From: an uncultured Planctomycetota bacterium
GTDB taxonomy: Bacteria; Planctomycetota; Planctomycetia; Isosphaerales; Isosphaeraceae
Assembly: GCA_963845755.1 (NCBI GenBank)
Contig: CAWJTV010000006.1
Coordinates: forward strand, 32,001 to 96,000
Direction: 5' to 3'
Length of the DNA: 64,000 bases
Part shown: in pieces, positions 4,572 to 49,402 of the stretch
Numbering within the stretch: position 1 is the first letter of the stretch
Layout of the letters: the number at the start of each line of letters is the position of its first letter
Program-made: the position numbers and the translations under genes
Notes under the pieces: generated by a model
The model's database searches: none
What the model was told of the DNA's origin: nothing
Seen by the model: only the letters and a program-made list of their open reading frames with translations

Positions 4572-4591
4572 GAGGGCATCAAGATGCCGTC

Positions 4592-5109
4592 TCGAAGTAA
4601 CCGGAAAGATCGCCGTCGACCACCTCGGTATGCCCGTTCCGGACCAGCCGTTCGACTTGCCTCACGGCGTCGAGGGCGCTCCGTCCTGGGCGATACCCGT
4701 ATTGCTCCGGCTCCAGGTCGGCCTCGAAGATCGGCTCCAAGACCAGCACCGCGGCCATCTGCGCTACGCGGTCCTTGATGCAGGGAATCCCCAGCGGCCT
4801 TTGCTTGCCATCCGGTTTAGGGATGTACACGCGTCGGATCGGCTGGGGTGAGTACGTCCGCTTCTTGAGGTCGTCCGCCAATTCGTCCAGCCATCGGTCC
4901 AGTCCGTATGCTTCGATGTCGTCGAACGTCTGGCCATCGACCCCGGCGGCGCCACCGTTGGCACGGCAGCGGGCGTAGGCTTCCTCCAGGACGTCGCGGC
5001 GATAGACCTTGTCATACAGCGCATAGAACCGATAGTCAGGCGACCCCTTCGCTTTGGTGTGCAACGCCGTCTGGAGTTTCTGAACCGTCGGTGGAGGTGC
5101 TAGGCTCAT
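4592..5109 (-). pseudogene. ltrA: group II intron RT, N-terminal fragment
   Basis: RFYALYDKV, GAAGVDG, RVYIPKPDGKQRPLGIP, DRVAQ, YGYRPGRS, VVDGDLSGYF. Confidence 0.95.
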
Positions 5110-5630
5110 TGCCAATCTCCTGGCTCTCATGCCCCTTGTGACGCTGACCTTGAACTGAGGCCCCTTTGCTCCGCCGGCGTTACCCGGCTTCCTCGCTCAT
5201 ACGGGCCTCTCCGCCACCTCGGGCGGCCCGACCTGGCCCTCGCGGGTTGTCGGTTGAGGGTCACGCGCCCTCACCGCCGAGGCTTCCCGTGTTGCGTCGG
5301 ATCTCCTCTGCAGGCATGCCACCGCCAATACCCCGGTGGAACCCTGGGAGCGTGTCGCGTCGTGAGGGGTAACCCCCTCTGTCTCCCAGGACGGCGGCCT
5401 TCCCCGTATAGCAACCGGGTCGGCTTCCACATCGGGTTGTTTCGGGGCTTGCACGGCGTTCACTGTCGTTGCGGCCTGCCTGCTCGCCGAACCGCCACAG
5501 CGGCCCGTTGTCTCGAAGGCTTCGACGGCTTTGTCACCTCCGCCGCCGCTCCGATCGCTACCGGATGGAGCGACCAGTTTTCCGGGCGGGATTCGCACCC
5601 GCTGAAGATCCGAGCCTTTTCACGGCGCAC

Positions 5631-28529: not shown

Positions 28530-29151
28530 GCGACTGCCCTCTCCAGGTGTCACCGGGTGTCCGCGGGAATGCAGACGTCATTCCGATGGCAGTTTCCCGA
28601 CAATTGTAAGATCAGGAGGAGATCCGATCAACCGGCATCATCCATCCGGGTGCAGTCGCGTTCCTGTGGGTGCCGATCCAGGGGCAAGGCGACCCGTCCC
28701 CGGACGCTCGAGAGCGACCCCGCCGCCGATACCCAGAACGCCCCGCTCGACCGTCTCCGCTGACGAATGCCCCTGGCCGTTGCGACCCGGCCTCCGCTGG
28801 CCCTCCTGCCCGTACGGCCTCATCCCTTCCACGGGACGGCTCATCGGCGCGATCGGTCTCTCGACCGCCACGCTGCCGGTGCGCGTGGCGAATGAGTGCA
28901 GACCGAGGCTCGGCTGACCGCCCTCCGGCACAGGATCTTCGACGGCAAACTGGACCGGGCTCGGCCCGATTTCCTAAGGGAGGTGCGGTGGTCGGACGTT
29001 GCGGCCGCAGCCCGACAAAGTGGCCCTGGTACCCCTCCGAGCCTGGCGAGTGGCCCCGATCGGCGGTCCCAGCGAGCGCAAGCCGCGTGCCACCCTGTCG
29101 GCTCCGTGGCAGCCCTGAGGGTTGCGCGCTTCGGTGTCGTCGGACGAATGG

Positions 29152-29739
29152 GTGCGCCGTGGCCAAGGTTTGTCTGGTCTTGTCGGGAGTGCCCCGACCC
29201 CGCTGGAAGAAGGCGGGTCAAACGTTCCGCCTACCTTCAACCGAAAGGATCGAGGGGACCACAGCATGCGGAAGAAGCGACGTGAGGCCCAGCGTCAAAG
29301 GGCCAAGAGTCGTTCGCGAGTTAGGCCACGCAGGGGTAAGGCTGGATTGCTTGAACTCCAGTCCCAGGGGGTGTGACCGACCGCCGCCGGGAAAGACGCG
29401 GAAACCCGGATTCCTGTCTCCCGGGGATCGGCCATTCGCCCCCGTGATCTTCCGGCAGGACACACCCTGCAATGAGCAGGGGCAAGGGATCAACGGAGGC
29501 CCTCAACGTGGAACGGACCTGACAGACAACCACGGGATCGCCTAAAGGTCGCAAGGCCCAGGGCGACAGAGTCCCCGTAGTAGGCATCGGCCCAAGGGGG
29601 ACAGGACACAGGGCTTCACCAAGAACGGGGTGACTCGGATGAGTCATTCAGCCCTGCTCAGGCTTGAAGCGCTGCGGAAGTGGTTGGACCGTGACACCAA
29701 TGTAGATCCTGTGTCTGGAGAGCCGGATGCACGAAAACG
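29152..29739 (+). ncRNA. ORF-less group II intron A (5' end to first half of domain V)
   Basis: GTGCG start; EBS1 CCATTCG (29432-29438) complementary to exon CGAATGG; short ORF stub; ends GAGCCGGATGCACGAAAACG. Confidence 0.8.
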
Positions 29740-30471
29740 GTGCGCCGCGGAACGCGGTGTTGAATCCCTGACTCAGACAGGAGGAGCTCGGAGGGTTGCT
29801 CCTGGGTCATCCGATTGACCTGAAGGCGAAAGCCGGAGGGGAAAGGAGCATGTCGGAAAAGCGGGGGCCACTGGAAGACGCTGAAGGTGTCGTCCCGCAA
29901 GACCCGCGTGATAGGGCGAAAGCTGCATTGCCTGAATCCCAATCCCCAGCGGTGGAAGACGCACACCCGCTGCTACAGCGTCTGGAATGCAGCGCCACCA
30001 GGGGCGGATCGTTCGCGTTTTGCGATCGGCCACCTCCGACTGGCGGGGCGATGAAGAACGACTTCATTGAAGGGGATGAGTGGGGCGCCTCAGTCACGCT
30101 CGATACGTTCAACACCAACGGAACGTGGGATGGCCTAACGGGCGCGAGCCCCAGGGTCACGGAGTCTCCGTAGTAGTCCGAGGTGGGGAAAGCCCACCAC
30201 ATGGCGAAGGGAGACAGGTAGTCTGACGACCGAGACGTCAAGGTACGCGAGATGCGGTACGCCGAAACGATCTTGGGAGTTATCAGCGAACGTGGCGGCA
30301 CACGTTCAAAGCATAGACCACTGGCGAGCTGCTTGAGATCGAAAGACTCACGAGCGGTTCTGAGGGGGGCGGACGGAAAAGGACACAGCCGGTTACCCGT
30401 CACTGCCGCGGCATGACGAGCCCATAAACGAACTCCGGCATAAGCCGCACCTCGCCGGCCGCCTACCCTAC
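29740..30471 (+). ncRNA. complete ORF-less group II intron B (IIA-like), inserted in domain V
   Basis: GTGCG start, domain V GAGCTGCTTGAGATCGAAAGACTCACGAGCGGTTC at 30326-30360, CCCTAC end; RT stub MRYAETILGVISERG. Confidence 0.88.
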
Positions 30472-30603
30472 CCCGTCCGGTTCGATGAGCGGGGTGAGGA
30501 AACGGGGCATGGTCGAGATGGTGGGACACCCGCAGACGAAAGGGCGGGCTAACAGGGGAAAACAAACTTCGACCTAAACCACCGCGCCTCACCTCGACTC
30601 TAC
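30472..30603 (+). ncRNA. 3' end (second half of domain V plus domain VI) of group II intron C
   Basis: CCCGTCCGGTTCGATGAGCGGGG...CTCGACTCTAC. Confidence 0.85.
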
Positions 30604-30855
30604 ACGGAGAAAAAACCAACGGACTTGGCTCGTAGCCCCAGATCCACCGGGTTTTTCCTTCTCGAAACCCGTCTCTGGGGCCCTGATTCGAGAAATCGCA
30701 TTCGAGAACGGTTATCGAGAACCCAGAACTCGGGGAATTACGCGGGATCGGCCGAAACCCTTAAGGCTTCTCGATTACCATCGTTTGCAAGAGAGGCTCT
30801 GAACACCTGTTATCCGGAAGATCGTTGTTTTTTTCGCGATTACTATCGGAACCCC
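30604..30855. mobile_element. small non-autonomous element with 38-bp GGGG-type IRs; left IR cut by the intron
   Basis: Right IR 30818-30855; inner 23 nt of left IR 30604-30626; five internal TCGAGAA copies. Confidence 0.65.
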
Positions 30856-49167: not shown

Positions 49168-49402
49168 TAGAGCGCGTAACATTCGGGTTGCGCACACAAG
49201 GACGGCCGATTTCCGGCGGCCTGAAGGGCCGCAGAAACCTAGCCCCGGGTGAAACCCGGGGTCCTCGGCACCCACCCAACTCCGGCGGCCTGAAGGGCCG
49301 CAGGACGACCCTCCGGCACCCTTTCAGGGTGCATGAGGAGGGCGCGTGCACCCGATTCCCGGGGTTTCACCCCGGGCTGGGTTGCTGCGGCCCTGCGGGC
49401 CG
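49168..49402. repeat. IS630-type MITE end followed by a GCCTGAAGGGC/CCCGGGTGAAACCCGGG REP cluster
   Basis: TAGAGCGCGTAACATTCGGGTTGCGCAC; direct and inverted REP units 49218-49401. Confidence 0.7.

Follow-up and report, generated by a model that had tools for sequence, protein, structure and literature searches.

The stretch of DNA considered here, which we call the window, comprises 64,000 nucleotides (nt) of the genome of an uncultured planctomycete of the family Isosphaeraceae (assembly GCA_963845755.1, contig CAWJTV010000006.1, positions 32,001 to 96,000 of the forward strand; G000:C6:32001-96000 in the genome and contig handles used below). It holds, at 29152-30603, a stack of three group II intron parts, A, B and C, in which B, a complete intron, sits inside a catalytic hairpin (domain V, DV). 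We have little doubt that introns of the clade to which B belongs home to the DV of other group II introns. B itself is very likely a decayed, protein-less copy from this mobile clade, which is LtrB-like (IIA/ML-type), and the outer element a dead chimera of A and C. The parts of the stack, in window coordinates and with the exon-binding and intron-binding sites abbreviated EBS and IBS, the open reading frame ORF and domain VI DVI, are as follows:

29122-29151 (+): A-family target motif, the 5' exon of intron A; about 27 nt before the GTGCG start are common to 13 A-family 5' ends in the genome
29152-29739 (+): 5' part of intron A, namely domains I-IV, from which the ORF has been deleted, and the 5' half of DV, delimited by BLAST against the genome
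29720-29739 (+): 5' half of A's DV (lower stem strand, upper stem strand, tetraloop and 2 nt), the homing site of B
29728-29732 and 29734-29739 (+): IBS2 and IBS1, inside the 5' half of A's DV
29740-30471 (+): intron B, 732 nt long, a group II intron that is complete, has no ORF and belongs to the DV-homing clade
29959-29963 (+): EBS2 of B, ACGCA in a hairpin loop, located by scanning exon positions for covariation with columns of the intron
30015-30021 (+): delta (G30015), then EBS1 of B, CGTTTT, at 30016-30021
30201-30296 (+): remnant of B's protein gene, with start codon, a stop at codon 7 and the deletion junction near 30287-30296
30326-30360 (+): DV of B, from the Rfam match and the fold
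30361-30471 (+): DVI of B, a long helix that carries an internal insertion and bulged A30465 and ends in AC, from the fold and from the ends of the relatives' RF00029 matches
30472-30603 (+): 3' part of intron C, namely the 3' half of DV (30472-30483), DVI and the 3' end ...CTCTAC
30604-30640 (+): flank 3' of C, which differs from the A-family 3' exon CACTAGCTT

The source genome (14.3 Mb in 49 contigs, completeness 87.9%) contains at least seven full or ORF-less copies of the A family (two on C34 and others on C11, C7, C45, C36 and C42), so that the insertion point of B can be read directly. Positions 1-531 of A share 93.8-94.0% identity with six of the full or ORF-less copies, and its last 58 nt (A 531-588, up to 29739) are 98.3% identical to seven intact copies. 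In the full copies an ORF region of about 1.8-4.2 kb lies between two blocks of A; these blocks abut in the window, and A has therefore lost its ORF. In all seven intact copies DV is continuous, the 5' half ...GCACGAAAACG being followed by TGCCTGTCCGGTTC and an A-type DVI, so that these copies read without interruption through the position where B is inserted, as expected of a twintron. In the window, the sequence changes after 29739 (nucleotide 20 of DV) to GTGCGCCGCGG..., a canonical group II 5' end. An earlier sequence-only reading, which had placed the start of B in the middle of A's DV and a second DV half behind it, is borne out by these seven copies and by the reading of the junctions. 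All copies of the A family (on C34, C11, C7, C45, C36, C42, C9, C25, C28 and C40) also share a 5' exon of about 27 nt, ...TTCGGTNNGATCGACGAATGG, and the 3' exon CACTAGCTT, so that family A has a long, repeated target of its own.

B begins with GTGCG (29740-29744), which fits GUGYG and is conserved in its relatives. The Rfam model RF00029 matches it at 30324-30403 with 37.6 bits (E 8e-4), under the cut-off of 40 bits, and the minimum-free-energy fold (z = -2.55) shows a DV followed by a DVI in which A30465 is bulged. When applied to six relatives, the same model reached the cut-off in five (54.4, 49.9, 44.9, 43.9 and 40.0 bits) and gave 38.3 bits in the sixth; in the full-length copies L076, L073 and L069, and in L031, the DV/DVI match stops exactly at the 3' junction. 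The closest relatives lie in other genomes of the family and fall into two kinds. Three of them, G006:C961 (92% identical), G109:C4 of Singulisphaera sp. GP187 (90%) and G086:C27 (84%), carry about 1.7 kb between the positions equivalent to 557 and 548 of B, the percentages of the first two referring to B 1-557; the alignment to ORF-bearing copies spans B 1-557 and 548-732, and about 1.7 kb of L076 is absent from the window copy. Two others, G034:C7 and G061:C92 (78-79%), are ORF-less. The protein of the Singulisphaera copy (intron L076:3299-5749, ORF L076:3758-5593) has 611 amino acids with Pfam RVT_1, Intron_maturas2 and AI2M-like HNH domains, and its best match in the PDB is LtrA (5g2x; E 7.7e-109) over the full length. 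The full-length relatives of B thus encode an RT-X-D-En protein related to LtrA, which places them in the LtrB-like (ML/IIA) class. The A-family proteins are only 36% identical to it (tblastn).

In the window copy this protein is reduced to a seven-codon remnant, the first codons followed by a stop, and the suggestion that B is non-autonomous is upheld. Since the endpoints of the ORF deletion differ from those in G034 and G061, the ORF has been lost more than once in the clade. A search for an intact reverse transcriptase (RT) that could act on B in trans had also been suggested, and none that is cognate is present in the assembly (87.9% complete), where the best tblastn match is 58% identical over residues 1-233 only. 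B is probably immobile in this genome, and the stack may best be seen as a fossil, because no cognate protein gene is found while the seven intact A-type DVs of the genome, all of which match EBS1 perfectly, stay empty.

B is single-copy in its genome, and otherwise only distant pieces of it occur there. We therefore turn to its relatives elsewhere to ask whether the position inside DV recurs, using three sources: the 121 genomes of the Isosphaeraceae (Planctomycetota), the family whose genome records share intron B and of which 28 have some match to it; a pattern scan of species-representative genomes (the genome collection); and a metagenome census with a looser 5'-end pattern, in which at least 121 matches were listed, nearly all from samples with soil-type names. 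In the family genomes, all eight other distinct 5' junctions are preceded by a DV 5' half in the same register. The same holds for 8/8 loci of the genome collection, five of which coincide with family-genome junctions and three of which are new (two Gemmataceae metagenome-assembled genomes and one labelled Actinomycetota). Eight of the metagenome matches listed begin with GCGCG and are not introns; those that begin with GTGCG and have at least 25 nt upstream number 111, of which 96 are distinct. A strict test for DV (an AGC or CGC triad at -19 to -17 plus GNRA at -6 to -3) was passed by 73 of these 96 junctions, and most of the failures are DVs with a 1-nt offset or with a TAAA or GAAC loop. 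A loose test was passed by 105 of 116 junctions, again among the matches listed.

The hosts are diverse. When the 40 nt of host sequence before DV were clustered, they gave 62 clusters, among them A-like, C-like, CGC-triad and B-like (self) hosts. On the other side of the intron, the 3' flank is a DV 3' half in 10 of 16 rows from family genomes and in further metagenome cases; the six exceptions are rows that match just the last 100-165 nt of B (the DVI region) or are a host's own 3' end. Both DV halves of one and the same host surround a B-clade intron in G109, G086 and G006, and on inspection of the flank sequences the halves also fit each other in L069, L076, L082, L140 and L154. Complementarity of the lower-stem strands between the two flanks was considered and dropped, as flanks of different loci pair nearly as well. 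The specialisation for DV that the sequence-only reading had proposed from a single copy is therefore strongly supported by recurrent junctions in family genomes, genome collection and metagenomes; mapped copies, for which a position outside DV would have spoken against it, lie overwhelmingly inside.

Homing to DV is confined to a sub-clade, as a B-related intron just upstream of the window (G000:C6:27838-31943) shows: it is 68% identical to B in domain I, and its 5' flank is not a DV. The protein of this intron reaches 58% identity, over residues 1-233 only, and the intron is broken after some 210 nt by about 3 kb of other sequence. None of three outgroups that are about 65% identical to B, on plasmids of Rhodococcus, Streptomyces and Microvirga, lies in a DV, and one of them is in an IS5 transposase gene. 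Several members of the clade itself were of separate interest. In L173 and in L032/L033, B-clade introns lie inside the DV of B-like hosts, so the clade invades its own kind. In the metagenome locus L089:694-1445, two ORF-less copies stand head to tail; the second begins right where the first ends, without an intervening DV 3' half. L091 and L134, also from metagenomes, are copies at non-DV sites that are perhaps ectopic; the 5' flank of L091 reads like a coding stretch for a Walker-A motif (GxxGxGKT) and resembles the DV target loosely.

The target is read, at least in part, by base pairing with the intron RNA, and this can be followed by covariation. In the window, the EBS1 loop CGTTTT (30016-30021) forms six of six pairs with AAAACG, i.e. 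exon positions -6 to -1, the GNRA tetraloop plus two bases, and the adjacent G30015 (delta) faces C30472, both as had been noted from the letters alone. Across 59 copies, EBS1 pairs with its own exon at a mean of 4.92 of six positions, as compared with 4.52 when exons are shuffled among copies, and none of 5000 shuffles reached this mean. Restricted to the two variable positions, the means are 1.19 and 0.93, respectively (6/5000 shuffles). For EBS2, exon positions were scanned blindly against the columns of the intron, which singled out B 220-224 (29959-29963) with exon positions -12 to -8, the 5' strand of the upper stem, and in 57 copies the mean was 4.07 of five pairs, compared with 3.66 after shuffling (0/5000 shuffles reached it). 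Compensatory pairs for EBS1 include AAAACG/CGTTTT versus AAAACC/GGTTTT, as well as GCGACT/AGTCGC; others are TGCGG/CCGCA (17 copies), TGAAG/CTTCA and TGCAT/ATGCA. In one locus, L034 (G060:C733), the EBS1 hairpin contains an insertion of about 90 nt with terminal inverted repeats, which resembles a miniature transposable element.

Several results weigh against this interpretation of B and its clade. About 10 of the 96 distinct metagenome junctions, among the matches listed, are clearly outside DV (non-DV members of the clade include L091, L125, L150 and L188), and the exact 5'-end pattern occurred in 0 of 400 sampled Planctomycetota genomes outside the family, a sample searched for the exact pattern only, which does not imply absence. 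EBS2 of the window copy makes only three of five pairs with A's TGCAC, and one or two mismatches in EBS1 or EBS2 are present in many copies. Covariation of delta with delta' is not significant (11 of 13 copies pair, compared with a shuffled mean of 9.8, and 752 of 5000 shuffles reach that value). Folding with covariance models, as had been recommended, recovered the DV/DVI part of B, at the sub-threshold score given above, and no Rfam D1-D4 model matched B (29740-30320, E up to 10), models that cover some intron classes only. More broadly, neither A nor B was matched by a D1-D4 model when the window and the loci of the relatives were searched with Rfam; over the whole window the search gave the D1D4-4 domain of another intron at 5464-5604 on the minus strand and the sub-threshold match at 30324-30403. 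Finally, neither splicing nor mobility was seen: no public run contains this stretch, the best share of words being 0.29, in soil metagenomes, and contigs of three soil metatranscriptomes and one metagenome contain B-like relatives at 85-99% identity, with no joint from 29739 to 30472 and none that spans the stack, which is uninformative about expression or splicing of this particular copy.

We now turn to the other end of the stack. The sequence at 30472-30603 has matches at C13:209595-209726 (96.2% identity over 132 nt) and at C22:132-3 (95.4% over 130 nt), and in both places it is the DV 3' half plus DVI of another intron family, whose 5' domains are of the D1D4-4 type and, in the C13 copy, 74.5% identical over 557 nt to the intron that begins at 5630 on the minus strand of the window. 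No single intron matches both A and C, the outcome that would have made them two ends of one element; they are parts of different introns. Folded together, their DV halves keep the lower stem, form an upper stem of two base pairs (bp) and lack the asymmetric 2-nt bulge, at -16.6 kcal/mol, as compared with -20.6 for intact A and -21.9 for the intact C13 copy, which agrees with the earlier statement that the halves fail to rebuild A's stem. Removal of B would not restore a functional outer intron in the window, given that the two flanks belong to different families and their DV, once joined, has neither a proper upper stem nor the bulge.

It had also been proposed that the exon after C matches the target of the 5630 intron. 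This was not confirmed; apart from a shared hexamer, no resemblance to the sequence from 30604 onward was seen. The 5630 intron is cut inside its RT gene near 4585, so that no 3' exon can be read for it, and its 5' exon occurs once in the genome; an attempt to rebuild its target from uninterrupted exon copies was abandoned, there being none in the genome.

How could parts of two intron families come to flank one B? We lean towards homologous recombination in which a B copy sitting in an A-type DV exchanged with another in a C-type DV. This is the most economical origin and probably the right one, and it explains what is seen in the flanks: identity to A runs to the base before B and identity to C starts at the first base after it, therefore both breakpoints lie inside B. 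Suitable partners exist elsewhere, since B-clade introns are found in A-like hosts (L071, L079, L080 and L176) and in C-like hosts (G109, G086 and L056), and so do mismatched flanks (the upper stems in L078, L096 and L124, and L150 with a non-DV 5' flank and a DV 3' flank). Of the claim that recombination between B copies fused A and C, the chimera stands in the assembly, and the exchange itself is consistent with the data and probable. Some observations speak against it. Neither a second B copy nor a reciprocal product is present in this genome (87.9% complete), and the same-genus genome G046 is without a syntenic locus and offers only paralogue-level pieces of 68-88%, so that the locus before insertion was not recovered. 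In addition, the window 3' exon is one G short of the B-in-C twintrons in G109 and G086. Homing shifted by one base was considered as an explanation for this G, and in a hand count EBS1 (five of six) and delta would fit but EBS2 makes just one of five pairs; otherwise, a later deletion of 1 nt must be assumed.

One may also consider an origin by reverse transcription, in which B homing was copied from unspliced donor RNA, or the RT switched templates, joining the donor's 5' flank (A) to the recipient's 3' flank (C). Co-conversion of flanking exons during retrohoming is known from yeast mitochondrial introns, the protein of the full-length relatives is an LtrA-like RT with an endonuclease domain, and mismatched flanks recur at other loci, although this is expected under any process that exchanges flanks. 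However, the window retains the full 5' part of A together with the A-type 5' exon motif, so that the cDNA would have to span all of A and join upstream DNA without homology, and no intermediate was seen. We consider this route improbable; the present data do not separate it from recombination.

A further explanation would be an artefact of assembly: B would be present twice, in an A intron and in a C intron, and the assembler would have collapsed both copies and joined the wrong flanks. The assembly, with its 49 contigs, is rich in intron repeats and several contigs end inside introns (e.g. C22 and C28), and the best share of words in public runs, mentioned above, is one that came from soil metagenomes. 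Yet a collapse would leave orphan halves behind. A motif count in the assembly gave eight A-type DV 5' halves and seven A-type 3' parts, all seven in intact copies, as well as three C-type DVIs and two C-type DV 5' halves, both in intact copies; hence neither an A 3' part nor a C 5' part is left orphaned, and this speaks against a misjoin at collapsed repeats. Independent metagenome contigs have mismatched flanks too. An artefact is accordingly very unlikely and, even if real, would leave homing to DV unaffected. That B is an ordinary, unspecialised intron which landed in A's DV once by chance, through ectopic retrotransposition, would accord with its single copy here and with clade members at non-DV sites such as L091, L125, L150 and L188, but is scarcely credible and is contradicted by the DV junctions of all three surveys, with the same insertion point in hosts from 62 sequence clusters and with EBS1 and EBS2 that covary with the host DV.

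By analogy with Ll.LtrB, homing to DV could proceed as follows. A ribonucleoprotein would reverse-splice into DV at the DNA level after nucleotide 20, just past the GNRA tetraloop and two bases. EBS1 would pair with the tetraloop and these 2 nt (-6 to -1) and EBS2 with the 5' strand of the upper stem (-12 to -8). The near-invariant strands of the lower stem would then coincide with the stretches of distal 5' exon and of 3' exon that an LtrA-type protein reads, so that the tetraloop and upper stem would be read by RNA pairing and the invariant lower stem probably by protein. Insertion splits the catalytic hairpin of the host, and the host could therefore act only once the inner intron is removed. 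A wider picture, in which we believe about as much as we doubt it, is that this widespread LtrB-like clade of soil bacteria consists of hyperparasites of group II introns, which use DV as a near-universal homing site, silence the host until they are spliced out, and provide, as dispersed copies, portable homology through which the halves of unrelated introns recombine.

Two other features of the window fall outside the stack. The intron at 4585-5630 on the minus strand, a D1D4-4-type element already mentioned, breaks up a transposase-like reading frame. Unrelated sequence cuts its RT gene short near 4585, and a DV belonging to it was not found. At 49217-49261 (minus strand) and 49358-49402 (plus strand), two Acido-Lenti-1-like hairpin RNAs form a convergent pair, with scores of 30.2 and 29.3 bits, below the Rfam cut-off of 37.

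If homing to DV is confirmed, the clade targets the one sequence that no group II intron can afford to lose; this would explain why dozens of host families are open to a single clade, and each insertion ties the activity of the host to the splicing of its parasite. The clade would then supply a programmable reagent of natural origin for use on group II introns, allow an obligatory order of splicing to be studied in bacteria, and offer a route by which intron halves of different families are joined or DV is split, i.e. domain shuffling among ribozymes. This last point is relevant to the possible origin of fragmented ribozyme parts that act in trans. On the practical side, intron finders that rely on an intact DV will overlook the outer members of such stacks.

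To our knowledge, no lineage reuses DV as a homing site. A full-text literature search found no DV-homing bacterial lineage; subscription journals were outside its scope, so that an earlier description is possible. Known targets of bacterial and archaeal introns within introns are the dispensable domain IV (DIV) or a protein gene, and a lineage that homes to the catalytic hairpin would be new. Among solved structures, the best relative in terms of protein comes from Ll.LtrB, whose LtrA (5g2x) matches the full-length B-clade protein from end to end (E 7.7e-109). The geometry of its target, with IBS2 at -12 to -8, IBS1 at -6 to -1 and delta' at +1, has the same spacing as in the B clade. Ll.LtrB, in contrast, homes into a relaxase gene, and we know of no targeting of DV by it.

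For nested introns the comparison draws on excerpts of the sources. In those excerpts, the psbF twintron of the Euglena gracilis chloroplast (Copertino and Hallick 1991; see PMC8393795) is an inner group II intron within DV of an outer one, and as with B the inner intron must leave before the outer one can fold. It is, however, a single organellar case in a protein gene and without a mobile RT-En protein, whereas the B clade comprises about 100 bacterial or soil copies in many unrelated hosts. Other twintrons in the same partial sources have the inner intron in domain I (Trichodesmium) or in domain IV, domain I or the maturase (plant mitochondria). The nested introns of Methanosarcina acetivorans (Dai and Zimmerly 2003; see PMC4424553), where nested homing is described as balanced by recombination, provide a precedent for both halves of our interpretation; judging by the title of that paper, homing there is into the ORFs of related introns, and in the B clade it is into the ribozyme core. 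Similar in behaviour are the ORF-less TeI3 (F3) introns found inside TeI4 (F1) introns of Thermosynechococcus elongatus (Mohr, Ghanem and Lambowitz 2010, PMC2882425), which, according to the excerpts available, are likewise derivatives mobilised in trans that evolved toward one conserved site of another mobile intron. Their target, part of DIV, falls between the first and the second ATG of the host ORF and is used in one closely related host family. The B clade resembles such intron-homing introns in its recurrent insertion at one conserved site of many hosts, and departs from the DIV or ORF targets known for them: its site follows nucleotide 20 of the catalytic DV, in many unrelated host families and, as L173 illustrates, in the DV of its own kind.

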